From NCBI GenBank assembly GCA_001662655.1, contig KV460228.1: a stretch of 64,000 bases of DNA; one strand, given 5' to 3'. Origin of the DNA: Pseudogymnoascus verrucosus. Lineage: Eukaryota. The position numbers were made by a program, and so were the translations under genes. Below the pieces are notes generated by a model that worked only from the letters and a program-made list of their open reading frames with translations, was not told the origin of the DNA and did not search any database. Each line of letters begins with the position of its first letter. The first letter of the stretch is position 1. Shown here piece after piece: positions 38,329 to 64,000 of this stretch.

Positions 38329-38404
38329 GCAGGGAGAGGCTGGCATAACATCATTCCTCTACTGATTAGACTTTTAAATATCTAAACCCCAATATACGCA
38401 CCAT

Positions 38405-40689
38405 CTAGACCCTGCAAAGCCTCCCATTCTGCGTCGGCAGCCACTCAATCTGATCCGTAACATACCAATCCTCGCTCCCCACCGCCGTAGGCGCATAGAA
38501 CAGTCCGTACGGATCCATCTTCTTCTTCAGCGCATACAGACGCGGGTATTTCGAGTCCCCATAGAATGCTATAGTCTGTCAGTCATGGTCTCCCCCACCA
38601 AAAAAAAGACAAAGGGGTGAAATGGGTGAAATGGGCAAATGGGAAACGAAGAAGAAAAAGGAGAAAACATACACTGCTGCACATCCGGCTCCGTAACATC
38701 AGCCTCACTAGCATACGCCCCCGCCCCCGGGCTCACATCCCTCCACCTCCCCAACCAATCCATCGTCAACCTCTCCGACTGCACTGCGATCGCCTCCGGA
38801 CTCGGATCGAGGAGGAAAATAACCGCGATGGCATGCAACACCGTCTCTCTCCACGCCGGGTTCACCGCGTTATCCGGCAACGCGCTACCACGTCGTCCGA
38901 GTCCGGGGGCGGCGATGTTGAAACCGAGGAACATGCCCCCTTCCTCAACAGGGTACTTGATAGCGTCGAAGGTGGCGTTGAGAGTTGCTTCGTCCTCCCA
39001 GTTCTTGCGGGGGAATAAACGACCGCCTGTCTTGGCTGCTGAACCACCCACTGCTTCGAGGGGGAACCCAGCGTCCCATGCGTCGTGGAAGTTGTCAGCT
39101 GGGAAGTAAACCGGGTCCACCTCAATCCCGAACCCCTTCAGATCATCCAACCACGGCGCGAGAAGCCCAGCTGTTTCAGCTTGCGTCATATTAGGCGCGA
39201 AGAAGGGGAGCATGTTGAACAAATACTCCCCCGGCGCCGTCCCCACAATGCTGAAGTACGAGTAAGCACCCGCCTCGGTGTGGGGGATGAAGTAATCAAA
39301 GTACGCCCTCGCCCCCGCCCAGAACGCATCCACCGACACACCACCGGGAGCGGTGCTGTTGCTGGCGAAGGAGAATTGCACAGCAGTCGCCTTCATGACG
39401 GGGTAGACTTTGAAGACTACCGATGTGACGACACCGTATGTTGCTCCCCCGCCGCCTCGAAGCGCCCAGAAAAGCTCGGTGTTGGAAGTCTCGCTCGCGG
39501 TCACGAATCGGCCGTCTGCGAGGACGATCTCGAAGGCCAGGACGTGGTCAGCTGCTAGCCCGTAGATGCTAGAGAGGGGGGAGTGGCCGCCGCCTGCTAC
39601 GTAGCCCCCCGCGATCCCCACCGTCTTCCCCTCCCCTCCCACAGCCGTAAATCCGAGTTTCTTCCCCGCCTCATAGAGTTCAAACGCCTGCACCCCAGCT
39701 CCGATCTTCACCGCTCTCCCCTTATACGAGGGAGTCTTGTACGACTCGAGGAGTTTAATATCCTTAAGATGATGCGTCCACACCGCCAGCGCGCCAGCTC
39801 CGGCAGAACGACCGTTGAAATCGTGGCCGGTGTTCTTGATTACTAGCCGGATGTTGGTGAGGCGCGCGAAGTTGACGGCGAGTTGGATTTGTGAGATGGT
39901 GGTGATGTTGAGGGCGTAGCTGGGGTATCCCCCTAATGTGCAGGGCTCCGTGGGGGTTGCAGAGGGGAGGCAGGTGCGGCCCTGCCAGAGGGGCCACATT
40001 ACTGAGGTCGGGTCTTCCATGCTGGGGAGGGGGTTAGTTATCAGTTATCGGTCATCGGGATCATAAGAGTAATAGTGGCTGTGACTATGAGAAAAGAGGC
40101 GGGGCTGGAGATGGGAGAGAAGGGATTTGGAACCAACTTACTGGAAAAATGAGTTCGTCCAATTGTCAGTCACATACTCGCACTCCGCCTCATCCTCATC
40201 ACCCCATCCCTTATAGCAAGATGACGCGCTGGGGATGGTAGCTATCAATTGCCCGCCGGAGAGGAGATCAAGTAACTTCCACACCGGCTTCGATGGCCAC
40301 GCCTTGTCGCCTGGGAAGACTTTACATTTCCCCCCTGTGCGCTTGTCAAGCGCAATGGCATCGGAGGGGGTACCGAAGGCGAAGAGGGAGGTATCGACGC
40401 CGAGGGATGTTAGGTTGGCGAGCACGGCATCGGTGAGCTGGAGGCGCTCGGAGGGGAAGAGTTGGGCGTTATCTACAGCAGCTGCGGCGGGGGATAATGT
40501 GGTGAGGTCAATGGCTATATAGAAATCAGCTACAGCGCAGAAACGTGGGTAAAATAAATATCAGTACTCACCAGCAGTGTTCCCAGCACCATTTCCAACG
40601 TCCTGAGCGCTGGCGGCTGTGGAGAGAAAGAAGGTCTGTGCGAGCACCACAGCTCCAAGCACTTTTGGCGGGGATGGGTAGAACATCAT
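38405..40689 (-). CDS. Secreted FAD-linked oxidoreductase (berberine-bridge/VAO type)
   Basis: Signal peptide; [25 protein letters not shown] (covalent FAD His), [23 protein letters not shown]; final exon [23 protein letters not shown]; 3 introns. Confidence 0.92.
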
Positions 40690-41391
40690 GATTTCACTTC
40701 CGCGCGTCTGTAACAACCACGTAGGAACCTCAATGGCTTCTTTTTCCTCCTACCATTTGCAAAAAGAGGGGGATCGGCGGGCTCTTAAATACTACTACTG
40801 TACAACCATTTTAATCTACCTCACCGCGTCGTGCCTGCTTACACCCACCTCTGCGGCCCCCAAGCCGGTAGATTAATCAAGACTAGTTAGGGACAGGTTA
40901 TGCAATCTAGGTATGCATCGTTACCAGGATCCGAATTATCCCAGGCTACCCATTGGACCACTATAAAAAAGTATTGGATAAACCCCTCTCAAGCCCTGCT
41001 GTTATATGTGATACTTATTATCATATCTCCGAATAATAGCCTTTTTACACGTGGTGGGTGGTAGTGAATTTTTTATATCCGCCCTGTGGGCTTGGACCTG
41101 GGGTGGGGAAGGGGAGGGGAAAGTTGGGGGCTAAGAGCTGGGGGGTATTAAGGCTGAGGCTGGTTATTATCAACAACGACGCATGTAGTTGGGATCAGGG
41201 TCTAGGAAAGTCAACGAGGTTTTTATTTTTCATCCCCTTGCCATAAACAATCTTTTCACTATCAACATCATCACCTCATCCATAACCATCAATTTTCCAT
41301 AACCATCATACCCATCATACCCATCATACCCATCATCACCATCATCACCATCATCACCCATAACCATCACCACCCCCCCACTATTCAACAT

Positions 41392-44300
41392 CTAATACCT
41401 CCTCTCCCCCCTCCCATACTCATCCCCCCTCCCATGCTCCCTCCTCTCCTCCCCACCACCATACCCACCTCCTCTACGCTCATCATCATCATCCCTCCTC
41501 CCACCACCGTGGTGCTCGCGGCGGGATTCTTGACCGTATCCACCGCCTCCACCACCGCCACCGTACTCCTCGCGGCGGGATTCCTGGCCATATCCACCAC
41601 CACCACCACCACCATACTCCTCACGACGGGACTCCTGACCATATCCACCGCCGCCGCCACCACCGTACTCCTCACGACGGGACTCCTGGCCGTAACCGCC
41701 ACCACCACCATACTGCTGCTCCTGGCGCTGCTCACGGCGAGGCTCTTCGTAGCCGCCTCCACCACCACCGTATTCCTGACGCTGCTGTCCATACCCACCA
41801 CCACCACCACCACCATACTCCTGACGCTGCTCCTGGCGCTGCTCTCCATACCCACCGCTGCGCTCCTCATGGCGGCTCTCTTGGCCGTATCCACCACCAC
41901 CACCACCACCATAGCCCGAGGACTGCTGCTGCTGCTCCCTCTCTCTCTCCTCCCTCTTCTTGCGTTCCTTCTTCTCCCTCTTCTTCCTCTTATAATCCGA
42001 ATCATCCCCGGAATCATCATCATCCGAGTCCTTCTTCCCCCCACGCCCCCCGCTGTGATACTCCTTCGTCTTAACCTCCGTCTGATACTCATCCCCCCCG
42101 GCAGTACGGCCCTGCCTCCACTCCTCAGTCCTAACCTCATTCCCGCGCTGTTGCTGGCGCTGCACGTGTCCCTCGTACGCCTGCCCCGACTGCGACTGCT
42201 CGTAGCGGCCGTACTCGGATGTCTGGGCCCCGCTCGGGTACTTGGTCTCGGAGTACTGCGCCTGGGCAGTCTCGTTCCTGTTGCTGCCGTACTCGGTGTA
42301 CGACTGCGTCACGCTGCCGTCGCCGGACTCGTATCTCTGGGTCGTCTTCTTGGTCTCCTTGTCGCCGAAGACGTCGCTGAGGAGACCGCCGCCGATGCCA
42401 CCGGCCAGGGCGCCGACGATGCCGCCGAGGGCTCCACCGCCCGCTGCCTCGGAGGCGAACTTCTCAATCTCGGAGTTGGAGGATTTAGTTGGGCGACCGT
42501 AGCCGGAGCCCGCGGAGGCAGCTTCCTGACCGCCTGAGAGCGCGCCGACGAGGTCGGAGATCATGCCGCCGCCGCCGCCGCCGCCGGCACCCTGGCTGGC
42601 AGAGCTCTTGGCCATGCCAATGGGCTTGCAGCAGCCGTGGCCGGTGTCGACAACACCCTCCTTGTGGTTCTCGCCATTCTGGATGCCGCTGCGGCTGAGC
42701 TTGCCGCGAAGCTCGCGCTGCTCAGCCGAGCCCTTGGAGGTCCACCACTGCTCGACGACGGAGAACATTTGTTGGCGGCCGTCGGAGGCGCCGTCTTGGC
42801 CCTCGTGGCGGAGCGCGGGGTGGTGGAGGACGCCCTCGATGATGCGGGTGCAGGTGCGGTCGATGTCTTGGCGCTCGTCGTCCCAGCAGGCGATGAGTTG
42901 GGGGACGACCCATTTGAGGACGCCGCTGGAGATCTTGCCGGCGGGCTCGTTGAGGATGCTGCTGAAGTGGTCCTTGGAGAGCATGGAGTGGGTTGGGTCG
43001 GAGCTCTGGTCATCTTGGAAGACGTTGTGCTGTTGGGCCTTGCTGCTGCTGATGATCTCGGATGAGCCCTCGTTGAGCTCGTTCTTCATCTGGTTGATGA
43101 GAGGGAGGACGAAGGGTGCCAACAGGCTGAAGACGAAGATGTTGACCTGGTTCTCGAGTTGCTCGATCAGCTCTGGGAGAATGGGGATCTTCTCGATGGC
43201 ACTGGAGATCTTCTTCATGAGGTTGTCGTGCCACTCAATGATAGGGTATATCTGCTTGACGCACTCTTGCATCTGGCGAGTAAAGGCCTCGGGCTCTCTG
43301 GGAGACACGCGGATCTGGTTCATCTGGGCGGTGGTGGCGTTAGTTCGGAGCTCCTCGGCCTTTCCAGCCTCGTCATCGTCACCGAAGATTCCGCTTGGGA
43401 TCTTGTTAAGAATATCCCTCAAGAAGCTCGTGTCGGCATTCTTGCCATTCTGCATGGTCCCCTCAAGCTGCTGGATTTCGCTCTGGGTGGCCTTGTCATC
43501 GAATTCACCCATGACGGAGTGGAGGAAATCGACACCGCCGAAGGTACCGGTCACGAGAGGGTAGACGGAAGAGCGAGCACCTTGAAGACGGATCTGGGTG
43601 TTGCGGCCAACCAGCGGGAACACGTCGGTCTCGCCCATCTCGATAAGAGCAAGCTCGATGTAGTTGGAGTGAGCACTGAAATCTTCCAAGCAGTGCAGAC
43701 CGGTACCAAGAAGACGGAGAGCTTCATACAGCTCATCCTTGTTCTTGCTGCGTCCATATGATCGTCCGAGTTGAATGCATTTCGAGAATAGTTTTCGGAC
43801 GTGGCCAGCAGACGTGGTAATGCCAATCTCCTCGCTCGCAATATAGTTCTTCATGCCACGTCGCTGATCGATTGCCAGTTCGACACGCTCGTCGACGGGG
43901 CCACGAAGGCGGCGGTCGTACTGGGTAGCATCAAGGTTATCGGCGTAGTCTTTTGGGTTGTCGATGTGGTCTTCGGGGCGGTAGCAGCCAAGGCGTTCGG
44001 CGGTGACTTCGAACTCGCCGGTGCCGTAGCCGAAGGTCATGAAACCAAGGACCCAGAGGAGAATGCGGATGGCCTCGGCGGAGACGTACTTGACCGTGCC
44101 GACATCAATAGCCTGGGCTGGAGAGAGTGGGTTAGGATATGGTGCGTAGTGGGGGAGTGAAGTACGTACAGTAATCTCTCAGCCAGTTACCAAAGTAAAC
44201 ACGGGAAACGCTCATTTTATCAAACTTCTTGCCTCCCGCAGCGCGAGACATGGCAAGGAGGAGGAGGGTATCTTCGATATCGCCATGGCGCCCTGGTATA

Positions 44301-48976: not shown

Positions 48977-51799
48977 AGCCTGTTTGATGGTTGAGAGAGC
49001 TCTTGATGTGTTTGTTCAGGGTTTATATGCTTTCCTTTGTTCATCAGTTTTCTTTTGTCGTTTTTTTCTTCTCTTTTGTTTATGGGTTATGGGGGTCGGA
49101 GGAATGGGGTTTGTGTTGATTGATGATGAGATGTGGGGTTGTGCTGGTTGTGCTGGTTGTGCTGGTTGGGTATACCCGTTGTTGGGGGTCTAGGGGATAG
49201 TGCAAAATGGGAGGTATATGATGGGGTATGGGTATGGAGGTAGAGGGGTAATTGAGTGGTATAACTTTATTGTGATTCTAGACTGTGATTCTGCAAGGTT
49301 GTATGTGTGTGAAGTGTTATGTGAAATGCGTGTTTGGCTTACGATTTAGCAAGGATTGAGAGGCTAGATGTTTTTACTAGGTGTACTCGCGGTTATCACA
49401 TCGCACCTAGGGAGTTCGCGGCAGTTAGACAGCTCCCACCCCGCATACCCCCCTCCACTCCCGCAGATCAGATAGCGGGGTCCAGTCTCGATCAACCACC
49501 CCTGGCAGATCATTTGCATAGAATCCTCGGTCATCAATGCGCACCTACGATTATATAAAGTATTATCCAAAACACCCAGTTCCCGCGCTATCTACTCAGT
49601 GTCCGTAGAACTACTGAACGAGTTCCAACCCAAGGCGGACGAATTTGATGAGTCCCAGAGATAGGGAGAAGGTGATTAGTTACTGCTGTGGAAGATTGCT
49701 GGGGGCCCACTGTCGTCACCGTTGGTAGATTGATTCTCACCGCTGGGTTCTCACCACCGCCGCACCGCTCTCACCACCACAACCATCCCCAACGACCCGT
49801 GGAACGCCCTCACCTCTCCCGCCACAGGCGCAGTCATGACAAAGGACGAAGAATTATTCCAATCATCTGGGTCAACCATAGCGGGAGAGGAGTTCCATTC
49901 GCTCTGCAGTCTTAGAGACGCTGGTGAAGTTCGCCATTGCGTCCCCTAGCTCCCCTCCCGCGGATCGGATAGCAGGCGGGTCCATTGGAGGGAGGTGGGA
50001 GGGAATATTGTGGCGTATATACCATTCTCGGTCTTCACTGAAAGCATCATCGCAACTGCATCCAACGATACGAATCCTCCATCCCCTTTTCCCCTAGGTA
50101 CCAGTGTTCTTAGTTCCAGCTCCCTTACCCTGTATATATGGGCGGACCTGCTGAATCAGAGTCCAAACTGAGTTTGTAAATATATAAAATGCCATTCCAC
50201 GATCGCAAGAATGGCATCTGGTAAAGTCCAACAGGGCTTTATTGAAATATGGCTCAGACAGGTTGCTGGCGCGAGAATGGAGGTTGAAAGGGGGGGGGGG
50301 GGTGCTGTCACCAGGGGTTCTTCCTTTCGCTATCATTCCTGTTACTATTCCGCTCTCACCACCGGCCGTCCCTTCTTCTCACTGCTCCCGCTATCATTGC
50401 GTCCCTCACCACACCACCCCCCCCCCCCAACCCTCCCACCAGCACAACCCGTCCTCAACGACCCGGGCGATTCTGTTCGTTGTCGATACTATTCCCCTTG
50501 CAAATAAAATCCTTCGTTTTTTCATCATTGTGATTAGCTCATGCACACATGCAGGTGTATATGGGCTGCTGCTGGGGCTGTTGCTGGGGCTGGCTGGGAG
50601 GGGTGGCGGGGAGGGGGAGGGGGAGGGGTATTTTGCGTATGTTGGTGGATAGGGTGTGTTTGGATGGGAGAAATAGAAAGGGGGGGAGGGGGGGAAGTTG
50701 AAGAGCTCCCTCCTGTAGATCAAATAGCGGGGTCTATCAACCAGTTGCGTAGAGAGCGTTCTCAGTTCTCACCCAAGGCATGCATGCATCATCGCGGCTA
50801 CAAATGGTGATGATATACCAGATATCCAAAGCGCTCAACTCTGGCCTACGGAAGGGAATTCCAGAAAGCTCTTGAGTTGACAAACGTGGAGGGCGAGCGG
50901 GTGCGGGTTCGAGAGAGGATCACGTTCTTCGAGCAGCGCATCGCGTTCTTCGAGCAGCTCATCGCATCTCGACACGATCGACACAAACGATGCTAACCGA
51001 AATGTGCATCATCGATGCTCCTGTCTGTTGCTGTCGTGCTGTCATGCTGTCATGCTGCTGTTGTCACCGCTAGATTCTTCCCACCACTATCATCTTCTCA
51101 CCATCATGCTACTCTCACCAACAAGACATGCATGGGCTCCTTGGCGACAAGGTTCATCTCTTTGAACTGAGCGGCTGGCGTTAGCGTTCCGATTCCCAAA
51201 ATGTCAGGGTTTCCGGCCATCGTGGCATAGAGATGTGCTTAGAGTATTGTTATCGTTCTCTGATGCGGTCTGGAGTCCAGGTACTAGGTCAGATCGGGAC
51301 AGGCCTCTCATGTGTGGCCTTGGTGGTATTGCCATTGCTGGTGAGAGTAGGGTGGGATGGGGTATTGGGGAGGTGCGGGGGGTATGTTTGCATCTCCTCG
51401 TTTTTCGTCGGGGGTTGGCTTGGGGAATAGCTTGGGGCCCCCCGGGGGGGGGAGGGTGTTATGTACGGTTTTTGTGAGATACATTGGTGGTGTATGTCTG
51501 GATGGTACGGGTATATATAGATGGATTTGAGGTCGCCAGAGGGCGCTGGGGACGGCAAGGTACGGCGTAAGGGGTAAGTTGGGGTATAGTCAACTAGCTG
51601 TCCGTTGGTTGTGTCAAGCGCATCCTTTGCCGCCTCAGATGCAGGCCCTATGACGATAATAAACCTTTGGAGTGCTGTGGTGGAGCGGACGCTGTGATCG
51701 TTGGAGAGGGGGGTTATGCTCCCTGCGTGTTGGGAGAAAGTACCTAGCGAATGAGGGGTGGTCTGCACCATTGTGTAGAGATGAGGGTAGTTGTGTGTG

Positions 51800-52260
51800 A
51801 TGCAAGTACTTACTGTTTTCATAAGATCTAGATGGATATATTCGAGACTGGTTTTAGATAAATTAGCATGAATATCAATCAAACCTTAAAAAGGTAACGA
51901 ACTTATTTGATCTAACTTATGATACAAGCTTCTACGTAATTATTAAAATGATAAAATAAAACAAAAAACTCCTACTATAAAAACTATAAAAACTACTCTT
52001 CCTTAAAATGAAATTACTCTTCCTAAAAATAAAACCACTTAATACCTATGCTTATAGCTATGCTTATAAAACGTAGAGATAAGTCTTCCCTAGTTGGTAG
52101 CTATAATAACTAAAGTACCTTTTATTATTTTCATTTCTAACTATTTATTAGAGAGAAATTAAATAGATAACATTTCACGTTATATCATATAACTACCTTC
52201 CTTATACCACTTAAAAGGATCACATTTTTAATAGAAAAAATAGTATATATATATATATTG
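51800..52260. other. AT-rich, TpA-rich tract; probable RIP-degraded repeat relic
   Basis: Abrupt drop in GC, many TA dinucleotides and stop codons, short internal duplications (ACTATAAAA, CTATGCTTATA). Confidence 0.5.
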
Positions 52261-52612
52261 GTATTTCAACTCCTACGAGCCAGTCCTCTAGAATCAAAGG
52301 AAGGGGACCAACTGATAACGATATGTCGTCACTTTGTACACCACCACCACGTTGGCGGGTTATTCCGCAAATCCCAATGGAACTATAGCGCAGATCCCTT
52401 CCCCGCAATCTACTCCGCGCCGCGAATCTAGATTTGTTGTTGATCCCAGACAAAAGTCCAATTGCAATCCCCACTCCCATCCAATGTATTCCTAGGCGCG
52501 CGGAGTTAGATCATCATGTTCGCGGTGTATTGATTGAGTCCAGCAAACCACCCCCAGCGCGCGCACTCGGCCAGAAGGAGGAGAGATCGACACAGGGCCA
52601 CCTCATCCCAGC

Positions 52613-54683
52613 ATGAGTAGCCCCGACGACCCCATAGGGTTGCCTACGCCTACATCCAATGAAATCTCGCGAAAACACAATCGGCCTGATGATGATGAGC
52701 ATCCGCAAAAGGTTCAGCGAAGGCGCATAGCCTGCCAGAGGTGTCGGGGGAGGAAGGTGAAGTGCGATAATGTGCGGCCTAGTTGCGGGTCTTGTGTTGA
52801 GTCGGGGAGGCAGTGTGTTTATATTGATGGTGGGAGGGAGAAGTCACCGTGTGTAACCTGCTACTTTATTTTCATATCGATATACTGACGACGTATAGGG
52901 AGGCGTCTATTCCGGCACAGCTTATGAGCCGGCTGGATCAGATATTGGCGGGGGTACAGGGTATAACCGCATCACTTCGTCCTCAAGGTATGTGTTATTA
53001 AAAAGCCCGCGCTATGTTGAATTGCTGCTAACTAAATATACAGACTCTATCCATGAGCATCGGGTACAAGATCCAGTTTCCGGATCCCCAAGGCACTCCG
53101 ATATTTCCGGCATGACGCCGAGCTTCCAGCATCCAGCCACGATAGATGATGCTCAAAAGGACTATCTCAGGATCCCCAGCACCAATACAACTGCCGATAC
53201 CATTTTGACATGGCCTATTTATGCCGGCGAATACCCCCCAGGGTATCTCATCGAGGCAATCCTTGGAAAAGGCGAGGATGACAAGAGTGACGCATTTGTT
53301 GTCCGACATGGCGAATTCGAGTCATTGTCAGATGAGAGGATACCCTCTTTAATAGACAGGTTCCTGCGCAATGTGCACACGAAGAATCCGATTCTCGACG
53401 TTGATGCTTTAATTCAATATGGACAGACGGCGGCTGCGAATGGGCCGGGGTGGGATGCACAGTCATGCCTGGTGCTCCTAGCTTGTGCCCTGGGTTCAAT
53501 CTCATATTCTTTCGAGACGTCCATTGCAAATCAGACGGAAATGGGCTTAGCCGGGCCACCACCCACGTCTGCTTCGACTTACAAAAAAGAGCTCCGACAG
53601 GGTGAGTCGTGCTATGCTTTGGCTTGTCGGAGGTTGGGTTTGTTGAAACATACCATTCTTGGGGCGCAGTGTTATTTTTACTCTGCTGTATATCTCATGT
53701 ACACTTTTGCTCCTTTGCAAGCTTGGAATCACTTTTGTCAGGCATCGACTTTCTACCAGCTCAGTTTCAGGAAGATATCCAAGGTGTCTGAGAACCCCCG
53801 TCTAGACGGACTGAGTCTGACGCATCGGAGACTGGAGCAGAGTCTCTACTGGTCTTGCTTCAAGTCGGAGTGTGAGATTCGAGTCGAACTACCGTTACCA
53901 CAATCGGGGATAGCGAGTATAGAGTACCCTCACCTGTTCCCTTCGCCCCCATCTCATTCGAGGAATTCCTCGGGAAGGACACTGCACGGCAGCGAGATGC
54001 TGTCAGACCCTGGCTTGATGCAAGATAGCGATAAAGACCTGAACGAGGAGAGAAGCTGGTATTACTATCTTACCGAAGTCGCATTGAGGAGGATCAGCAA
54101 CAGGATATTAAGCACATTTTATCGCCAGGACCACACGGATTGGAAGAATATATTGCCATTGATCCCCATCGCCAAAGAATTCGAGTCGCAGATTCTGGTC
54201 TGGTCGGCTAATCTTCCACCGGCAATGCAATACGATGTCAACTTGACAGAGGAAGGTCCTTCCAGGGAACTAAGCTGGGCAACAGGGAACCGATTACTGG
54301 AAATGAGATCTTGGCTCTATCAGCCATTTCTCTACCATGCCATACACGCTGATACCCAAACGGATCACGTTCGAGAGAATCCAGTCCTACAGTCACTGGT
54401 CGAGGCGGCGATGGACTGTCACCTCGAGACAGTCCAGAAGCGGTGTTTCAGACATCGACACCACGGGATTTGGTTTGATATCCGCGCCGTCGTAACGGCG
54501 GCTTTTAGCGTCATTGCGGCGGCTAAGAGCGGCAAGGTGACTGTTCGGGAGGAGTGGGCAGAGCATATTCCGACTGTCATAGGGACGTTGGCATTTTGGG
54601 AGGATGAGTCCCCAGATCTAGTGAGGACGCGACAGGTTCTGGAGAGGTTGTTTATGGAAGTTGGGTATTTCAATACGCCGTAA
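52613..54683 (+). CDS. Zn(II)2Cys6 transcription factor with fungal-specific middle domain
   Basis: CQRCRGRKVKCDNVRPSCGSCVESGRQC; introns 52849-52898 and 52988-53043 keep frame; FLRNVHTKNPILD, LYWSCFKSECE, SWYYYLTEVALRRI. Confidence 0.93.
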
Positions 54684-54795
54684 AGGAGAAGATTGATTGA
54701 ATAAACATATTGTCTATTATTAGAAGTTTACACGATCTACGATCTATGATCTAAGATCTACTAACACATAAGGCATACACCGTTTCCTGGAGTAC

Positions 54796-56687
54796 TCAAG
54801 CACTATCCGATCCGACACCCTTCTCGCCACCATCAAGAACCGCGGAGTCCGACTTGGGCACGTGAGCCGCCGTCGACAAACCACCCTCATCCATGAGCTT
54901 CTTGAAGTTCTTCTCCGCGTCCCAGTTCCACGGGGAGTCGGCAGAGAAGAGGAGATCCATCTGCTCGAGCGTGCGCTGGTTGGACTCGGGGTAGAGGGCC
55001 CAAACCATAGGCAAAGTAATAGCGTTTGCGATACCGAAGATGTACAGGGTCTTCTCTCCGATGGCCTCGAACATGACGGGGCATAGGAGGGTCAGCCATC
55101 CGTTACCGATGGACCATCCAACAACACCGAGTGCGTTACCCTTGGCGCGGATGGCAAGGGGGAAGATCTCAGCGGGGTAGAGCCAAGGGACGGTCAACCA
55201 GGTAGCACCAAAAGTCGAGGTGAATATGAACACCATACTAGCTCCTGCGGCGCCGAAAGCCGATGCTCTGCCAGTGTTGCCTGCGGTGGCAGCTTCGAGA
55301 CCGATGGCGGAGAATCCGCCGGCGAGTAACATGGCAATACCTTGGACAATGGAACCCCAGTAGAGGGTCTTGCGGCGGCCGATGCGGTCGAGGGTGAAGA
55401 CACAGACGAGAGTTGCAAACTAGACTGATGTTAGAGATATTGAGGGGCGTTTATCAGCGCGGAGTTGACATACCATGTAGAAGATATTGTTGAGACCCGA
55501 AATCCACTGACTCTTGCGAGCATCAAAACCGGCCATACGGAAGATGGTTGGGGCATCTTTGGAACTTGTTAGTGCGGCTCTTTGTATGATGGGGATTTTT
55601 AAATAGGATACTCACAAACTGTAACACCAGCAATACCAACCCACTCCTGCATAATCTGCAGCCAAATAACCAACTGAACACGGCGTCCAACGTGCAACTT
55701 TCCAAACCCACGGCCAGTGACGATGTTGAAGTAGCTGTCCGACGTAGTCTTCTTATTGTTGAGCTCGATAGCCATGGAGTTGCGAATATCCTGGAACTCG
55801 GCCTCGGCCCTGATAGTATCCTCCTCGCTGTTACCACGGAGACGGCCCAGGAGCCAGCGCGCCTCATCCTCACGACCCATCTTGACGAGCCATCTCGGGG
55901 ACTCGGGGAAGAACCAGCAGGCTCCTAGGAGGATGAGGAGGGGGAGGATCTGGAAGGCGATGGGGAAGCGCCAGATGATTGCTGCGTTGCCGTTGTCGAT
56001 GAAGGAGAGGCCGCTGGGGTGGGGTTAGTGGGTGTGCACGGAAATGGTATATGGGGTTGGGGGGCTTACAATTCGAGCCAGTATGCTACGACGACACCGA
56101 AGATGTTGAGGGTGAACTCAATGGCGATGAACTGTCCACGGCTGGTGTGCTCGGCGGTCTCAGTTGCCCAGACGGGGACGATGGCGTTCAGGATACCGGT
56201 TCCGACACCGTTAATCAGACGAGCTGTTATGAGAATTAGTGTAGCTCTTAGAGGGCAGAACGTAGGGGTAAGATGGGGGGTTAGGCATACCGAAAATCAT
56301 CCAGGTGTGGTTCTGGGCCGAACACTGCAGGGCGGCGCCAAAGATGGCCCAGGTGGCTCCAAATGCAATAGTCTTGATTCTGCCAACCTTGTCTCCGGTC
56401 CAGCCTCCCAGGAGGGCGCCGACCAGCGTGCCAAGGTAGTAGACCGCGACGATGCCGCCTTGGAGCAAGCCGTTTGTGACGACGGGGGTGTTCTGTCCGT
56501 TGATGACTTCAGTGTAGCCGAAGCCCATGGTGTCGATGTAGTCCTTGGAGTTGTTCACTCCGCCCATCATACCTTGGTCATAACCAAAGAAGAAGATGGA
56601 CAGGGCGGCAAGACAGTTGATGGCGATCAGGAGCTTGCCCTTCTCGAAGGAATGGGCAATATTCCATTTCTCTATTTGGTGGCCCAT
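54796..56687 (-). CDS. MFS sugar-porter family transporter (polyol/H+ symporter-like); 4 introns
   Basis: FFFGYDQGMMGG, GDKVGRIK, VPVWATE, FPESPRWL, QIMQEWVGI, DRIGRRK, WLYPAEIFPLAIRAKG, YPES. Confidence 0.94.
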
Positions 56688-56829
56688 GGCTGCGGGCTCT
56701 GGAGGGAGGAGGCGAGAGGTGAGAAATCAATTGAGTAGGAGGCGAAGAGAGGAATCCATTGACTGGCAATGACAATAAGATTTTATTTTCGAAGGGATGT
56801 GAAGTGGCTAATATAGTAAATGGAAAATA

Positions 56830-57050
56830 CCCCACGACTCCGCATTATGGAATACCCCAACCTGCGGGGGAGACAATGTGGGGATTTTTTGTCAGAGCGG
56901 CCCTGGGGATTGGGGTATTTGGTCGGACTTTCCCCGAGGACTCCCCGATACTAGTGCCGAAGGGACTGCCGGACCAATGGGCTCGTTTGTTGCCACCCAA
57001 GATCTCTCGGCGATCGGAGGTGGACTCCGAACTCCCCGATACGCGGCAGT
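56830..57050. promoter_or_regulatory. Divergent transporter/dehydrogenase promoter with five CreA-type SYGGRG sites and a duplicated 12-mer
   Basis: SYGGRG (either strand) at 56830, 56838, 56864, 56878, 56903; ACTCCCCGATAC at 56940 and 57031. Confidence 0.6.
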
Positions 57051-57195
57051 GCCGCCGCGTAAGTACGAGTTATAACATTTGTGGAAGAAAGTAAAGTGGT
57101 CCGTCCAGAGAGGATTATTGTATTTAACAGCTATGGTTCTTGGTTTTCAATCTTATTTTTTTTGTTATTTTATTTATTAAAGCAAAATAATCATA

Positions 57196-58378
57196 ATGGC
57201 ATCAAACGGAACAATTGAAGGCAGCGTTGAGAGGCATGGTGGCCTTGAGAAACTCGGTGCAAACGTAAGTTAATAGCACCTACGATTATCACCTCTGTCT
57301 AACAGATATTTAGAATCCGTCTTTTGTCCTCCAAAAGATTCAACATGTGGTCTTTGAGAACAGACCAGTACCGACGATTTCTCCAGAATCGAGCGATGTG
57401 ATCATTCAAATCAAGCAAACGGGTATCTGTGGCAGTGATGTTCATTATTACAATCACGGGTCTATTGGCAAGTTTATCGTTAAAGCCCCTATGGTGCTCG
57501 GCCACGAGTCTTCTGGTGTTGTCGTTGCTGCGGGATCTGGCTGCCAAACCCTCTCGGTCGGCGATGCCGTCGCACTGGAGCCCGGTGTACCATGCCGCAA
57601 ATGCCCTCCTTGCAAGGAGGGATTATACAACGTATGCAGCGAAATGGCATTCGCAGCCACACCTCCATTTGACGGAACTCTCTGCAAGTATTACACGCTC
57701 CCAGAGGACTACTGCTACAAGCTTCCAAAGCACGTGTCTTTTGAAGAAGGCGCGTTAGTCGAGCCGCTAGGTGTTGCGATTCACATTTCTCGCCAAGCCA
57801 AGATTATTCCAGGGAACAGCGTCGTGGTGTTCGGGGCTGGTCCTATCGGACTTCTGTGCTGTGCTGTCGCGAGGACGTTTGGTGCGACTACTATTGTCGC
57901 GGTTGATATTTTGCAATCGCGGCTCGACTTGGCTAAGAAAACTTTCGGCGCAACTCATACGGTTGTGGCTGGGGCCGCACCGAGCAAAGAGAACGCTGCG
58001 CGGATAATCAAGGAGGCCAACCTGGGAACCGGCGCCGACGTGGCTATCGATGCAAGTGGTGCTGAGCCTAGCATTCAAACGGGCATTCACGTGCTGCGAT
58101 CTGGTGGCACTTATGTCCAAGGAGGAAATGGGAAATACGACATCAACTTCCCTATCGGCGCCATTACCGAGAAGGAATTGACGGTCAAGGGCAGCTTCCG
58201 GTATGGAAGCGGTGATTACAAGTTGGCGATCTCTATGCTGGAAAATAGACAGGTTGACTTGAAGAGTCTCATTACAGCACGGTATAAGTTCGAGGATGCG
58301 GAGCAGGCGTTTAAAGACGTGGATTCTAGGAAGCCTGGATTGATAAAGGTTCTCATCGGAGGCGTGCAAGATGAATAG
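57196..58378 (+). CDS. Zn-dependent NAD+ polyol dehydrogenase, xylitol/sorbitol dehydrogenase type
   Basis: GICGSDVHY, GHESSG, CRKCPPCKEGLYNVC, FAATPPFDG, GAGPIG, GSFRY; intron 57265-57313. Confidence 0.95.
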
Positions 58379-58389
58379 ACATAGCGCTA

Positions 58390-58678
58390 CTACACCTACA
58401 TGTTGATAGATAGTTCTCGGATGAGCGGAGTATAGATGCTGGTAATCACAATGATGTTCAAAATTATAAAACTCCCACAAGTCAAACTGTTAGCGTGAGG
58501 CGTCAGAAGTAAGTTGCATATTCATAGGGTTCTAGCTACACCTACATGTTGATAGTTCTCGGATGAGCGGAGTACAGTTGCTGGCAATCACAACGATGTT
58601 CAAAATTATAAAACTCCCACAAGTCAAACTGTTAGCGTGAGGCGTTAGAAGTGAACTGCACAATCACAGGATTCTAGC
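58390..58678. repeat. Direct tandem duplication, two copies, 146-bp period
   Basis: Copies begin CTACACCTACATGTTGATAG at 58390 and 58536 and align end to end. Confidence 0.95.
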
Positions 58679-59336
58679 TCTTGGCTGGTCTTGCAATCGT
58701 CCGTCATATCCTCATCTCATTATGATCGGCTGGCGTAGCCGCCAGCAAGCATCTGGGTCGGCAGAGTTCCGACGCCCAGGCGGCCTACCAAGACTGAAAA
58801 TCAAGTAAAAACGTGAGAAACGACTCGTAAAATTTCTTGGCCTAGCTCACCCGAACCCCAGTTGGAGAAATAAATGGTCTCCACTAAAAGTTGGTGGAAG
58901 CGCTAGTGAACCCCAAAAAACGGAACAAGAAGCGGTATCGGGCTCGAGGCCGAAACTCGCCGTGTGGCTTTATTGACTCGGGGGCCCCGGATTTAATTAT
59001 CACCACGTGAAGAGTCAGGACTTTCGACCCGCTTGCATGTCACATTTCAAAGGTGCCTGTCCCATCGATTGCGGCTCTCGCTCCTTTCTCCCCGAGCGAA
59101 CCTCGAGACGAGGACTGTCTTAGATCTTGTGGAGAAAGTGTTACTCGTGAGTGCGTGCATATCTGTACTAACCAAATCCGAAGACAACCAGACTTCTAGT
59201 CCATACATCGTAGACGACGTGGTTTTTTTAATTACGGGCTCTTATAAAGACGCGTCTCTTCCTCACTCACTCTTTTCTTCATCTACGCAAGTCCTGAGCT
59301 GTGGAAGCCAATTAATCTTAAATCCCCGAGCTCACA

Positions 59337-61139
59337 ATGCCTACAATCGAAGCTGAACATTATATTGGCGTCGACATTGGGACTGGGAGCGCCCGAGTCT
59401 GCATCGTCGACCGCACAGGCGATATTAAAGCGGTCGCATCGAAGGACATTCGCACGTGGCAGCCACAAAATACTTTTTATGTAGGCCTGCTTCAACAAAA
59501 CTCAAACCAAAGAGAAACTTGCTAAGATGTGCAGGAACAATCTACATCTGACATTTGGAGCTCTATCTCGACTTGTGTTAAACAGGCCTTGAAAGAGAGC
59601 AATGTCGACCCCACCACAGTCCGCGGCATAGGGTTCTGTGCTACCTGCTCACTTGCAGTCTTTTCTGAGGACACAAGTAAGCCCGTATCTGTCAGTGGCC
59701 CTGACTTCAGTAAAGCCGACCAGAACGTCATTCTGTGGCTGGACCACAGGGCTGTCGAAGAGGCAAAGGTCATAAATGCGACCCACGATAATGTTCTAAA
59801 GTATGTTGGCGGCCAAATGAGCGTTGAGATGGAAATCCCAAAGATCTTATGGTTAAAGAATCATATGCCTGCTGATGTTTTCGCGGGCTGCAAATTTTAC
59901 GATTTGACAGATGCCTTGACCCACATGGCTACCGGGAAAGACACGAGGAGCTATTGCAGTACAGTATGCAAGCAAGGTTACCTTCCAAGTGGAGCAGATA
60001 CTGGTGAGACTGGATGGCGCGACGATTTCTTTGGCGCCATTGGATTAGGATGCTTGAAAGACAAGAAGTATGCCCCTCTTGGGGGTATTGAGGGGCAGAA
60101 CGGCCGATACCTGAGCGCTGGCGAGCTGGTAGGAAGTCTTTCTGAAAGCGCTGCAAAAGATATGGGATTACCTGCCGGAATCGCTGTTGGAAGCGGCGTC
60201 ATTGATGCTTACGCTGGCTGGATCGGAACTGTTGGCGCCAAACATGAGCCCGCTCAAGCTACCAAAGGTGACATTTCGGATGCATTCGGCCGGCTGGCTC
60301 TTGTGGGCGGCACGTCGACTTGCCATCTCGTAATGTCTAAAGATCCGATATTTGTGAACGGAGTCTGGGGACCATATCTTGACGTATTGGTACCGGGCAT
60401 GTGGATGGCCGAGGGTGGACAATCGGCAACTGGCGAGCTTCTACGCTTTATAATCGAGAACCACCCAGCTTATAAGGAGGCAATCAGCTTAGCAAAGCAG
60501 GACGGAAAAGATAAAAGCATCTACGAATTCTTGAATGGCCATCTAGAAGAGATGACTCGGAAAGCTGGCGCACCATCCGTTTCATATGTCGGCCGACATT
60601 TCTTTTTCTACGGCGACTTCTTCGGCAACCGCTCCCCACTTGCGGATGTGACCATGGCTGGTTCCATTATTGGTCTCACTACCGACCAGAGTGTGGATAA
60701 CCTGGCCCTACATTACTACGGCGCGATGGAGTTCATTGCTCTGCAGACCCGACACATCGTCGACGCAATGAACACCTCGGGACATTCAATCGGCTCGCTG
60801 TATATGTCGGGCTCGCAATGTAAGAACTCTATTCTGATGTTATTAATAGCCACAATCTGCGGACTGCCTGTGGTGATTCCTGAGTATGCAGGAGCAGCGG
60901 TCGTCCACGGCGCAGCTATGCTAGGCGCGAAAGCCGCATCTGCCAATGCCAGCGGCAATACTGAAGACTTGTGGTCCATAATGGAAAGGATGAGCAAGCC
61001 CGGAAAATTAATCCAGCCTGGCACGGATGCTGTAGAGAAGTCTCTCTTTGAGATCAAGTATGAGGTCTTCTTAGATCAAGCCAAGATGCAGCAGCTGTAC
61101 CGACGGAAAGTAGACGAGGCTATTGGCAGCTGGAAATGA
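59337..61139 (+). CDS. FGGY-family pentulose kinase (D-ribulokinase-like)
   Basis: YIGVDIGTGSARVC, ATCSLAV, NVILWLDHRA, YVGGQMSVEMEIPKILWLK, GSGVIDAYAGW, GGTSTCH, AEGGQSATG, DFFGNRSPLAD; intron 59481-59534. Confidence 0.95.
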
Positions 61140-61556
61140 TGATGTAAATCTCAGAGTCCGTTAGTTATCACGATTACAACGACAGTAGTCATAATCAAAA
61201 TCATTATCACATATCACATCCATGAAACTAACCCCAATCCAAAATGTAACAGACAGAACACTTCTTCGTTTTATTTCGTTGATCATAATAGTCATCATCC
61301 ATCCCCCACAAGCCCCTCTCTCTCATAAAGAGACCAGGTGAAATCATTACACAACCCATCCTTCTCCCTCTCCACCAAAATTGAAAATAGAAAAAAAAAA
61401 ACAGACAAGAGAGAAGAGAAGAAAACAAGAAAGAAGAGAAGCCAGTAACCCAAACAACAGAACGCCCCAATAGCCCCCTTCCGATCCCATATGCACGACA
61501 GACTCCAAAATAAGTAATACCCATGACAAAAACCAAAAAAAAAAAAAGGCAATCCC

Positions 61557-64000
61557 CTAAAGCCAGCCTCCAACCTCCTCCTGCTCCCACTTCCCCCCAC
61601 CACTCTCTCCCAAGTCCAACCCCCCCAATCTCGGCGCCTCCTCCCCCTTCTTCACCTTCCGCGGGCTTCCACTCCTCGGCTCACTCCTCTTTCCAAATCG
61701 CACCTCGCTCACCTCCCATCCATCCGCCAGTGCTGCGCCTACCCACTCACGGAGCGCGACGTGCACACCGCCATAAAACTTCTCCTTGCATGTCCTCAGG
61801 CTGCCGCCCATACAGCGTTCCCACCCGCTTATCCTCAATTGCGCGCGCAGCTCCGTGCGCCGAGAAGGGGGGAGGCAAGAGATGATGCCATTGACGAGAA
61901 AGAGGTGCGAGGTGATGTAGTTTGTAGCCTCCCACTCCACGCCGCCGACGTATGGGGCGGTGGGGAGAGGTGGCAGGGGGGTGGGGAAGTGAGTGCGCAT
62001 GTATGCGAGCTCATCATCGCCTGCGGTTAGGGGCTGGGCTGAATCGTCTGGCGCAAGGACGACGTTGAGTGTGTGCAGGAAGATCCAGAAGACTTCCTTG
62101 GTGACGTTTACGACCTCTTTGCACCAGACGCGGTAGGGACGCTCTTGGTGCATTTCCAGCACGAACGGCACCGGTCGTTCTTCCTCGGAGGGCATTGGGT
62201 CGCGGAGGTGTTTTAGAAGGGTCTCTGCGCGCGCTTGGCGCTCGGGTAACGGCGCCGATTGGAGATACGTGAAGAGAAGGGAGCTGATAATCGTTCTTGT
62301 TAAAAACTCACTCGGTCCCTTCTTCTCCTCATCAAAAAGCATACCCAGCAGCGCGGGGAAGAGCGAGGCCTGGATAAGTGCCAGATGCGACAGTGCGAGG
62401 GCTGTGGTGCACAGTGCCTTGAGGCAGAGAAGTGACTCGTGAAGGAGTGCGTCCTCGTGCTCCTCTCGCCACTCAACAGCCATTATGCGGTGCAGTAAGG
62501 CGATAATTTCTGTCATCCCACCGAGGGTGATGAACTCGTCTGTCCATGCTACGGTTTCGTTGCGGAGGAGCAGGCGGAGTTTGTGCAGCTTGCCGACCTC
62601 GACAGACTCAGGCTTCTGCACTTTGCGAAGGTAGGCAACGAAGTCCGTGGCCAAGTGGCCCTTAGCTTTGGCAATGAGGTTGCTTGCCGCGCTGACGGTG
62701 GCGGAGAGGGATTTACCCTTATCGGCTGTGCTATCTGAGGATTTTGTACGGGTGTGTCTGTTAGATGTCTCAGGCTTTGTCTCAGCGACATTTGCTCCCT
62801 TCTTGCCGGATTTTGAGAGTGTGAATCCAGTGAATGTGCGGCTACGCGGGCGTTTGCTTTTTTGTGGCGAGGATTCAACTGTGTGTGACCCACTAGTTGT
62901 GCTCTCCATGCTGCCAGCTGTTGTTGGGGGCTCTTTTTGAGAGGCTGCGGTCTCGGCCCAGTCCTGCCTTATGAAATCGATTTTCATCGTGTTGGCCAAG
63001 CTGCGCATCTTGTACCTCTGGTTCTCGGGTATATTTCTTCGGTCCAGCATAGCTTCGAACTCAGCATCAACGTCTCTCATATCCAGGGATGCTTCTGCCC
63101 CGGAGTTGTCTTCCTTCGGCTTTGCCTTCAAGTCCTGCTTGGACGGCAGCTTCTGTTCGGACTTCAGCACAGGTGTGGGTGCCACAGGTTGCTTCTGGTA
63201 AAACTGCTCTGTTGGAGACTCAGCGGCGCGAGTCCCTTCAAAGCTTGCAGGCCCAGCCTTGCTAGCTGGCCTACTGATATCCTGCACGATATAGCTGGCT
63301 GGAATCGACATGGAGTTTGGGCGTGATCCATCGCGCTGGCCCAGTGTAGGCGGCAAGCCTTCCTCAGCAAAGAAAGCGTCGTGATCATCAGAATAGCGTT
63401 CGTTTCCTGTGGGCACGTTGGTATCATCCTCGAGGAACCGGCCACCGAACTGCTGAGTGGCGAAATGCTGGCTAGAAAACTGTGTGTAAATTGGAGGTCG
63501 GGTAGGCGACTCCGGCGGCCTCGAGTTATTTGGTGGCTGGTTCTCTTTGTCTTTAATTGACATGAACCCAGCATCCGCAGCTAGCTTTTGGCGACTTTTG
63601 GAGGACCGCGGTCGTGTTAGAAGGGCTGCCAGATTGGTCGATGACTTTGACTTCTTCGGCTTGCGTTCCTTCTCCTCCTTGTTCTTATTTTCGTTGTCCT
63701 TGCTGGATAGTGACTTGAGTGAGATGGTGCTCAATGTCTTCTTGTGCAGGTATCGGAAGCCTTCCTTGTCCTTGCTCCGCTCGGCATCTTTGGACTTCCT
63801 CGGAGACGGAGGCTGTTCTACAGGCTTTTGTTGATTTTGATTGATCTCCCCCAGAGCTCTAGAATGAAAATAATCGGGGGGAGACACTGTCGCAGAGTTT
63901 GGTTGGTCATATCCAGGGGTAGCAACGAATATATCCGTTGGAGATGTCGATAATGGAGCTCCTTTGGAAGCCGATCGCTTGTGCATGAACGACCGCAACG
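61557..64000 (-). CDS. Rho-GTPase-binding (Drf_GBD, formin N-terminal-like) domain protein; 5' end probably beyond the window
   Basis: DAEFEAMLDRRNIP, EVGKLHKLRLLLRNETVAWTDEF, EWREEHEDALLHE, EKKGPSEF; no FH1/FH2 region. Confidence 0.85.
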   Translation of the reverse strand, partial: LRSFMHKRSASKGAPLSTSPTDIFVATPGYDQPNSATVSPPDYFHSRALGEINQNQQKPVEQPPSPRKSKDAERSKDKEGFRYLHKKTLSTISLKSLSSKDNENKNKEEKERKPKKSKSSTNLAALLTRPRSSKSRQKLAADAGFMSIKDKENQPPNNSRPPESPTRPPIYTQFSSQHFATQQFGGRFLEDDTNVPTGNERYSDDHDAFFAEEGLPPTLGQRDGSRPNSMSIPASYIVQDISRPASKAGPASFEGTRAAESPTEQFYQKQPVAPTPVLKSEQKLPSKQDLKAKPKEDNSGAEASLDMRDVDAEFEAMLDRRNIPENQRYKMRSLANTMKIDFIRQDWAETAASQKEPPTTAGSMESTTSGSHTVESSPQKSKRPRSRTFTGFTLSKSGKKGANVAETKPETSNRHTRTKSSDSTADKGKSLSATVSAASNLIAKAKGHLATDFVAYLRKVQKPESVEVGKLHKLRLLLRNETVAWTDEFITLGGMTEIIALLHRIMAVEWREEHEDALLHESLLCLKALCTTALALSHLALIQASLFPALLGMLFDEEKKGPSEFLTRTIISSLLFTYLQSAPLPERQARAETLLKHLRDPMPSEEERPVPFVLEMHQERPYRVWCKEVVNVTKEVFWIFLHTLNVVLAPDDSAQPLTAGDDELAYMRTHFPTPLPPLPTAPYVGGVEWEATNYITSHLFLVNGIISCLPPSRRTELRAQLRISGWERCMGGSLRTCKEKFYGGVHVALREWVGAALADGWEVSEVRFGKRSEPRSGSPRKVKKGEEAPRLGGLDLGESGGGKWEQEEVGGWL

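Follow-up and report, generated by a model that had tools for sequence, protein, structure and literature searches.

Organization and integrity of the locus

In the analyzed stretch of DNA from the cold-soil fungus Pseudogymnoascus verrucosus (the window; 64,000 nucleotides of contig KV460228.1), four adjacent genes encode a Zn2Cys6 transcription factor, a sugar-porter transporter of the MFS, an MDR polyol dehydrogenase and an FGGY kinase (Table 1). None of the four gene models (52613-61139) contains an internal stop, and all eight introns (GT..AG, or CT..AC for the gene on the minus strand) were confirmed by spliced contigs of four public runs, which stem from two studies, are taken to be RNA and demonstrate transcription and splicing. 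Both introns of the factor gene were spliced out in a single contig of run X4; the tool shifts the second cut to the right by 2 bases, leaving the mRNA unchanged. The four transporter introns appeared as CT..AC joints, the dehydrogenase intron (57265-57313) was removed in run X2, and the kinase intron (59481-59534) in runs X2 and X4. All four genes are therefore transcribed and spliced as modeled, and the four intact neighbors, in the orientation proposed from the sequence-only reading, were confirmed. The proteins are identical to database entries of Pseudogymnoascus sp. VKM F-103 / P. verrucosus: the transporter to P0283 (V499_02486 / VE01_05710), the dehydrogenase to P0121 (V499_02487 / VE01_05711) and the kinase to P0242 (V499_02488 / VE01_05712).

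Table 1. Genes and other features of the locus (positions in the window).
Feature	Position	Strand	Remarks
Zn2Cys6 transcription factor gene	52613-52848, 52899-52985, 53042-54683	+	3 exons, 654 aa
Sugar-porter MFS transporter gene	56687-56291, 56223-56070, 56013-55616, 55556-55474, 55419-54796	-	5 exons, 551 aa
Divergent promoter region shared by transporter and dehydrogenase	56688..57195	.	with repeated 12-mer
NAD-type MDR polyol dehydrogenase gene (XDH/SDH type)	57196-57264, 57314-58378	+	2 exons, 377 aa
Two tandem 142-bp units in the dehydrogenase-kinase spacer	58390..58679	.	TRF
FGGY pentulose kinase gene (TIGR01315)	59337-59480, 59535-61139	+	2 exons, 582 aa

The transporter and the dehydrogenase are transcribed divergently, with start codons 508 bp apart, while the dehydrogenase and the kinase share a strand and are separated by a 958-bp spacer. 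The repeat in this spacer (TRF period 142, 2.0 copies, 89% matches) may be no part of the cluster. Genes on both flanks (HMG-box, Het-C, FAD oxidase and GH43 upstream; a formin-like gene with Drf_GBD downstream) are unrelated to the four, and an Rfam search of positions 49000-62000 gave no match.

Regulator, transporter and shared promoter

The four family assignments made earlier hold by Pfam and profile scores (Zn_clus, Sugar_tr, ADH_N/ADH_zinc_N, FGGY_N/FGGY_C). In the factor, searched as exon pieces, Zn_clus scored 42.3 bits against a cut-off of 21, and the zinc cluster CX2CX6CX6CX2CX6C is readable in the translation. The remainder of the protein resembles Fungal_trans-domain proteins by its features, and an Atlas search with the regulator returned generic Fungal_trans clusters and nothing more specific. 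The transporter is a full-length match to the sugar porter family (PF00083 / TIGR00879; Sugar_tr 278.5 bits, profile positions 3-452 of 452), its best solved relative being the plant STP10 (134 bits). Its relatives, compared over the last exon, are 67-82% identical and occur throughout Pezizomycotina, some of them automatically named STL1.

The region between the transporter and the dehydrogenase holds two copies of the 12-mer ACTCCCCGATAC (56940-56951 and 57031-57042), with no other copy in the window. Its 8-mer core, CCCGATAC, recurs upstream of the kinase at 58935-58942 (-). As a shared promoter element, this 8-mer was rejected, since 330 of 1913 random region pairs yielded such an 8-mer and the sharing thus does not exceed chance; a degenerate 9-mer occurred at chance level.

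The dehydrogenase is of the XDH/SDH type

The full-length dehydrogenase matched ADH_N and ADH_zinc_N with 94.9 and 92.6 bits. The Cys, His, Glu and Glu of GICGSD, GHE and a later Glu, which are taken to be the catalytic zinc ligands, are invariant in alignment A1. The roles of such ligands are in part described in PMC7343156. Phe occupies both discriminating positions of the substrate cleft, in ..IGKF.. and GSFRY. By a published rule, Phe at the positions of human SDH F59 and F297 marks XDH/SDH, whereas LAD has Met and Tyr (PMC2731777). The ranking of solved structures agrees: xylitol dehydrogenase 7y9p (343.8 bits) comes before ketose reductase (296.4), sorbitol dehydrogenase (276-280) and the L-arabitol dehydrogenase 3m6i (225.8). 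The initial reading of GSFRY as pointing to XDH/SDH rather than to L-arabitol dehydrogenase was thus upheld.

The enzyme shares the MDR family with Aspergillus XdhA, SdhA and LadA, and has the zinc ligands and both XDH/SDH-type Phe residues, but it does not group with canonical XdhA. In a tree without a rooted outgroup, it fell into a separate, starred clade of 8 rows, which includes Hyaloscypha variabilis and two unnamed proteins, whereas the Eurotiomycete XdhA clade (100, starred) stood elsewhere. Its identity to XdhA orthologues is 61-66%. Unlike XdhA, the members of its clade carry a two-residue insertion near the C-terminus, and most of them have a longer N-terminus. The activity of the canonical Aspergillus flavus XDH on ribitol is reported to be low (PMC9512048), a point against the pathway proposed below.

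The kinase is a strongly diverged pentulose kinase

As a whole protein, the kinase scored 746.4 bits with TIGR01315 (curated cut-off 408.7), far ahead of the next models, ribulokinase PRK04123 (210.6 bits, cut-off 428) and XylB (104.4 bits), and also above the glycerol kinase models. Both domains are full length (FGGY_N 84.9 and FGGY_C 181.1 bits), and an alignment with the solved Yersinia homologue 3gg4 (396 bits) spans the whole protein. Membership in the Ydr109c/FGGY subfamily, as first proposed, therefore stood by profile, but the protein has diverged strongly from the characterized members: in the tree, it branched outside the group of 37 other Pezizomycotina orthologues (100, starred), on a stem branch of 0.92. 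Compared with these orthologues, it has lost an N-terminal stretch and carries two indels; 28 of the 248 columns that are invariant in 35 Pezizomycotina orthologues have changed, and its TIGR01315 score is 105 bits below that of a canonical Leotiomycete orthologue. The catalytic region GSGVIDAYAG has been retained.

One of the changes is a Cys in place of the Asp of GxGFDATCS, a position occupied by Asp in 115 of 115 other sequences aligned. This loop aligns with the sugar-binding loop of ribulokinase 3qdk. Family-wide, the exchange proved not to be unique: of 149 representatives, 112 have Asp there, 22 a different residue (Cys in 4 of these) and 15 a gap, and Cys, Ala, Thr, Ser or Gly stands there in 21 of 134 family representatives. 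The Asp-to-Cys change, therefore, need not shift the specificity of the kinase. Nevertheless, given the very long branch and the 28 changed positions, D-ribulose specificity cannot simply be assumed for this sequence.

Yeast Ydr109c and human FGGY are D-ribulokinases (PMC5714238). The Rhodosporidium orthologue RTO4_14368 is required for growth on D-ribulose, arabitols and xylitol and was shown to be the step through which pentitols and pentoses enter the pentose phosphate pathway (PMC10398940). The Aspergillus nidulans orthologue is rbtA (AN6985; PMC5863803), and Aspergillus rbtA was assigned to the same pathway (PMC5863803, PMC6231085). All of these share the subfamily with the window kinase; the accessible text on them mentions no gene cluster (PMC5714238, PMC10398940, PMC5863803).

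A second Pseudogymnoascus pentulose kinase was not found among the best 120 matches, so the window kinase is probably the housekeeping copy too.

Conservation of the linkage

The locus tags of the transporter, dehydrogenase and kinase follow directly on one another in 12 Pseudogymnoascus assemblies, and those of the dehydrogenase and kinase in 17, with protein identities within these sets going down to about 85%. In P. destructans, the kinase is present (96% identical), but neither the dehydrogenase nor the transporter was found in any protein cluster examined; retained there without these partners, the kinase therefore has a role outside the cluster.

Beyond the genus, the comparison covered 80 metagenome loci with XDH-like genes, drawn from the matches listed, of which the best is 66% identical; the clade of the window's own dehydrogenase lies outside this sample. 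Two of these loci (L036 and L019), representing one other, distant fungal lineage, contain a homologous trio of regulator, transporter and dehydrogenase without the kinase. Their transporter is 64-65% identical over 368 aa and again divergent from the XDH-like gene, and the regulator adjoining this gene in L036 is 30% identical to the window's factor (E 4e-51). A sugar porter homologous to that of the window was detected by tblastn in none of the other 78 loci. Since the trio recurs in this lineage and in none of those 78, regulator, transporter and dehydrogenase appear to travel together. By the same method, a pentulose kinase was found at none of the 80 loci (713,893 bp of flank). With such neighbors so rare around XDH-like genes, their adjacency in the window is no common accident.

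By locus tags, the XdhA-like gene and the transporter relative are not adjacent in Talaromyces rugulosus, Penicillium atrosanguineum, P. longicatenatum and P. ochrochloron. In other fungi, entries of the orthologous kinase carry the wrong name Nup93 or are joined to an AAA ATPase; as a hint only, the gene seems to have other neighbors there. An AU test of a single origin of the linked dehydrogenases gave p 0.066. Overall, linkage was observed across Pseudogymnoascus and, for the trio, in the one distant lineage; the kinase was found linked in no genus but Pseudogymnoascus.

Proposed pathway and alternative explanations

We read the locus as serving uptake and catabolism of a polyol, most likely a pentitol, in Pseudogymnoascus, with a probability of about 0.5. 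The sugar porter, putatively of the Stl1 clade, would bring in the sugar alcohol, which the zinc-dependent XDH/SDH-type dehydrogenase would oxidize at C2 to a 2-ketose; this ketose would then be phosphorylated by the FGGY pentulose kinase. Were the substrate ribitol or D-arabitol, the product would be D-ribulose 5-phosphate, a compound that feeds into the pentose phosphate pathway. The Zn2Cys6 factor would activate the genes, probably via the promoter shared by the transporter and the dehydrogenase. The intactness of the genes, their transcription and splicing, the families they belong to and their conserved linkage within the genus were observed; each biochemical step, the substrate, the co-regulation and the membership of the kinase in the pathway are inferred. 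Ribitol, the substrate originally proposed, is one candidate among several and was not favored by the tests made over D-arabitol, xylitol/sorbitol or a tetritol.

A possible, if clearly less probable, alternative is that the functional unit comprises only the regulator, the transporter and the dehydrogenase, which would take up xylitol, sorbitol or a similar polyol and carry out its first oxidation, the kinase being the general D-ribulokinase of the fungus that simply came to neighbor them in the Pseudogymnoascus lineage. This would fit the kinase-free trio of L036 and L019, the lack of a kinase at the 80 XDH-like loci among the matches listed, its solitary retention in P. destructans (in the protein clusters examined) and the lack of a second copy in the best 120 matches, as well as the filing of Aspergillus rbtA with the pentose phosphate pathway (PMC5863803, PMC6231085). 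An accidental neighbor is, however, harder to reconcile with an adjacency preserved in 17 assemblies, and the kinase changed unusually fast in precisely this lineage (stem 0.92), as fits a new role; the common strand and the 958-bp spacer are compatible with joint control of kinase and dehydrogenase. A more elaborate scenario is rather unlikely as a whole: an otherwise housekeeping single-copy D-ribulokinase moved beside an older regulator-transporter-dehydrogenase module in Pseudogymnoascus, was rapidly remodeled (long branch, lost N-terminus, changed sugar-loop residue) and works today in a polyol pathway of its own, its sugar specificity possibly altered. In the bat pathogen P. destructans, this pathway would later have decayed, the dehydrogenase and the transporter being gone and the kinase alone kept.

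That all four genes cooperate, but with D-arabitol, L-arabitol/xylitol or a four-carbon polyol in place of ribitol as the substrate and with the diverged kinase shifted away from D-ribulose, seems distinctly unlikely. The 28 of 248 changed invariant columns, including the Asp-to-Cys exchange in GxGFDATCS, the N-terminal loss and two indels, the 105-bit deficit in TIGR01315 score against a canonical Leotiomycete orthologue and the separation of the dehydrogenase from the Eurotiomycete XdhA clade all point in this direction; yet the Cys, Ala, Thr, Ser or Gly at the Asp position in 21 of 134 representatives and the intact GSGVIDAYAG region weigh against such a shift. That four unrelated genes, sharing neither function nor regulation, lie together by chance is very unlikely. 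Synteny inside one genus is expected for any genes, and the promoter motif was not significant; but homologues of the transporter and the regulator recur together beside the XDH-like gene of one distant lineage and of no other among the 80 loci, and the four families make up a full set for uptake, oxidation, phosphorylation and regulation. The polyol pathway remains our preferred reading.

Relation to known systems and significance

The logic of the proposed pathway, oxidation followed by phosphorylation to D-ribulose 5-phosphate, is that of the Klebsiella rbt operon with its ribitol dehydrogenase RbtD and D-ribulokinase RbtK. RbtK presumably belongs to the TIGR01315 subfamily and would then be homologous to the window kinase, whereas the rbt dehydrogenase is an SDR enzyme and its regulator and transporter come from other families than those of the window. 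The locus had been proposed as a functional analogue of rbt with an MDR in place of an SDR dehydrogenase; the MDR type stands, but the arrangement has a precedent in the operon of Sphingomonas sp. PAMC 26621, which comprises the MDR ribitol dehydrogenase SpRDH, an ABC transporter and a ribulokinase (PMC7343156). As far as its description goes, an SDH/XDH-like MDR enzyme converting ribitol to D-ribulose is linked there to a ribulokinase and a transporter, which is the enzymology first proposed here; that operon is bacterial with an ABC transporter, while the window locus is fungal with an MFS protein, and SpRDH shares no more than 30-35% identity with SDH/XDH enzymes (PMC7343156).

Literature searches on the Pseudogymnoascus cluster, or on Pseudogymnoascus together with ribitol or adonitol, brought up no relevant paper. 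A polyol cluster that unites a regulator, a dehydrogenase and a kinase has, however, been described in another fungus, Yarrowia lipolytica, namely the erythritol genes EUF1, EYD1, EYK1, EYL1 and EYL2 (PMC9835291). By its description, that cluster likewise combines polyol catabolism with its own transcription factor, a ketose-making dehydrogenase, a kinase for the ketose and a bidirectional promoter; it differs in its enzymes, its four-carbon substrate and its requirement for two isomerases, and no transporter is listed among its genes. Since the kind of system is already known, no general principle is changed.

What the conserved FGGY D-ribulokinase does in filamentous fungi is, to our knowledge, poorly defined, and a cluster in which it is joined by a polyol dehydrogenase, a transporter and a regulator would offer direct and testable access to pentitol catabolism. 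In the cold habitats of Pseudogymnoascus, ribitol and other polyols serve lichens and algae as their carbon currency. Very few fungal polyol transporters have been characterized; in A. niger, LatA alone was known until 2023 (PMC13323096). If P. destructans has indeed lost two of the genes, as it appears, this would be a further concrete instance of metabolic narrowing in that pathogen.

Gene structure and transcription

The four adjoining genes that the sequence-only reading had placed at 52613-61139 are intact, and the reading stands in this respect. The first gene models came from ORF listings and the sequence, and the final exon borders from contigs of four public runs presumed to be RNA, which inform on splicing and not on levels or conditions. 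All eight introns coincide with exact contig joints and end in GT..AG (CT..AC on the minus strand), and the frames of all four genes are open after splicing. Spliced contigs from these presumed RNA runs demonstrate transcription of the genes and processing in agreement with the models. The MFS, dehydrogenase and kinase proteins match entries of Pseudogymnoascus sp. VKM F-103 / P. verrucosus exactly (V499_02486/87/88 and VE01_05710/11/12).

Exon coordinates of the four cluster genes
Gene	Exons	Strand	Protein length
Zn2Cys6 factor	52613-52848, 52899-52985, 53042-54683	+	654 aa
Sugar-porter MFS	56687-56291, 56223-56070, 56013-55616, 55556-55474, 55419-54796	-	551 aa
MDR dehydrogenase	57196-57264, 57314-58378	+	377 aa
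FGGY kinase	59337-59480, 59535-61139	+	582 aa

The flanking genes are unrelated to the cluster: a formin-like Drf_GBD gene lies downstream and an HMG-box gene further upstream, together with a GH43 glycoside hydrolase, a FAD-binding oxidase and a Het-C heterokaryon-incompatibility gene (36416-44178). The ORFs tested in some 3.6 kb at ~49000-52600 had no Pfam match. In the dehydrogenase-kinase spacer a 142-bp unit is duplicated in tandem (58390-58679, 89% matches). A 12-mer is present in two copies, at a distance of 91 bp, in the promoter common to transporter and dehydrogenase, and has no other copy in the window; its 8-mer core is also present ahead of the kinase. As a sign of co-regulation this sharing was rejected, since 17% of random region pairs match equally.

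Dehydrogenase, transporter and regulator

The dehydrogenase carries the family zinc ligands and, in the alignment, Phe at both cleft positions that distinguish xylitol and sorbitol dehydrogenases (XDH/SDH) from L-arabinitol dehydrogenase, as reported in PMC2731777. Among solved structures it scored highest with xylitol dehydrogenase (344 bits), followed by ketose reductase (296), sorbitol dehydrogenase (276-280) and L-arabinitol dehydrogenase (226), so that its proposed XDH/SDH type is borne out on both counts. Its identity to orthologues of the Aspergillus xylitol dehydrogenase XdhA is 61-66%. In a 59-row tree it falls into a separate starred clade (n=8) of five Pseudogymnoascus rows, Hyaloscypha variabilis and two other proteins, apart from the Eurotiomycete XdhA clade; this clade has a two-residue insertion close to the C-terminus and, in most members, a longer N-terminus. 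Some contigs of two public runs, X1 and X2, match the gene solely at the conserved 57686-57726 and diverge on either side; therefore a related but different polyol dehydrogenase, from a paralogue or another fungus, is transcribed in the same samples.

The transporter is a full-length sugar porter by its family profile, with relatives across Pezizomycotina (67-82% identity over the last exon), some auto-named STL1. In several Penicillium spp. (P0301-P0305, P0315) the annotated relative includes a methylated-DNA methyltransferase domain (PF01035) as a fusion, probably a model merged with a neighbouring gene, which shows a different genomic context there. The regulator has a standard zinc cluster by profile match, and its middle region resembles Fungal_trans proteins by features.

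A divergent pentulose kinase

Against TIGR01315, the profile of the FGGY pentulose kinase subfamily, the kinase reached 746 bits (cut-off 408.7), far above its scores with the profiles for L-ribulokinase, xylulokinase and glycerol kinase. In this subfamily the yeast and human proteins are reported as D-ribulokinases (PMC5714238), and growth of Rhodosporidium on D-ribulose, arabitols and xylitol as dependent on its orthologue (PMC10398940). The proposed subfamily assignment thus holds by profile, but the protein is no typical member. In a 41-row tree a stem of 0.92 changes per column, several times longer than the branches of other Pezizomycotina orthologues, leads to the four Pseudogymnoascus sequences. 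These are placed neither in the Leotiomycete clade (98*) nor among the other Pezizomycotina orthologues, whose 37 sequences form one group (100*). The kinase scores 105 bits below a canonical Leotiomycete orthologue on TIGR01315, is without the N-terminal stretch found in its orthologues, has two indels and is altered at 28 of 248 columns invariant across 35 Pezizomycotina orthologues.

Among 141 sequences examined, four without the motif, the Asp of GxGFDATCS is Cys in 22/22 sequences of the Pseudogymnoascus cluster and Asp in 115/115 others; Asp is likewise found in the Yersinia homologue of known structure. In ribulokinase 3qdk the main-chain sugar contact lies three residues beyond the aligned position. 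Across 149 family representatives, 112 have Asp, 22 another residue (Cys in 4) and 15 a gap; judged from these alignments, the change is unusual, yet has precedent in the family. No second Pseudogymnoascus pentulose kinase was found among the best 120 protein matches, and the kinase is therefore probably the only one of the genus.

Linkage within and outside Pseudogymnoascus

MFS, dehydrogenase and kinase, the genes covered by the locus-tag counts, have consecutive tags in 12 Pseudogymnoascus assemblies, including the window's likely source, and consecutive accession numbers in one more; dehydrogenase and kinase have consecutive tags in 17. The bat pathogen P. destructans has a kinase (VC83_07520) 96% identical to the window's, and is absent from the eight dehydrogenase and three transporter protein clusters examined (protein sets, not DNA), a pattern that may reflect loss of both genes. 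In Penicillium psychrofluorescens an XdhA-like gene (PFLUO_LOCUS3569) and a pentulose kinase (PFLUO_LOCUS3587) are 18 tags apart, and both carry 5,231,705 bp as the length of their longest contig, which could be loose linkage or chance.

Metagenome contigs scanned with the dehydrogenase clade gave 80 XDH-like loci among the matches listed, with 713,893 bp of flank (at least 5 kb on both sides in 20, on at least one side in 43). All are at most 66% identical, so the window's own clade lies outside this sample. A pentulose kinase was found near none of the 80 listed loci, and homologues of the window's sugar porter and regulator only at L036 and L019, which are 99% alike and therefore counted as one lineage. 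At these loci dehydrogenase and transporter (64-65% over 368 aa) are likewise divergent, with the regulator (30%, E 4e-51) immediately downstream. The dehydrogenase of L036/L019 forms a long branch elsewhere in the 59-row tree; an AU test (p 0.066) gave no support to one common origin for the linked dehydrogenases and no rejection of it. From this arrangement, regulator, transporter and XDH-like dehydrogenase constitute a recurring module, joined by the kinase in Pseudogymnoascus only, among the loci sampled. Eleven XDH-like metagenome proteins (L032, L041-L043, L048, L051-L053, L057, L065, L066) have a long charged C-terminal tail with two final cysteines; this ending recalls a lipid-anchor signal, which would be odd for a soluble dehydrogenase.

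Interpretation

The main alternative to a four-gene polyol locus has only regulator, transporter and dehydrogenase as the unit, with the kinase a neighbour of general role. The kinase-free trio of L036/L019 and the kinase kept alone in the P. destructans protein sets agree with it; the conserved pairing of dehydrogenase and kinase and the rapid change of the kinase in this one lineage speak against it, and we consider it the less likely account. As for the substrate, ribitol is chemically sensible, and no test favours it over D-arabitol, xylitol/sorbitol or a tetritol. The canonical A. flavus XDH is reported to act poorly on ribitol (PMC9512048); the Pseudogymnoascus enzyme belongs to a different clade. 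Function, substrate and co-regulation of the cluster are still predictions.

No account of this fungal cluster turned up in the literature searched. Systems of this kind are already known: the Yarrowia erythritol cluster has its own regulator, dehydrogenase, kinase and bidirectional promoter, as reported in PMC9835291, and in Sphingomonas an MDR ribitol dehydrogenase is reported linked with a ribulokinase and a transporter (PMC7343156). The most likely account, at about even odds, is a locus of polyol uptake and catabolism in Pseudogymnoascus, whose kinase would pass the ketose to the pentose phosphate pathway.
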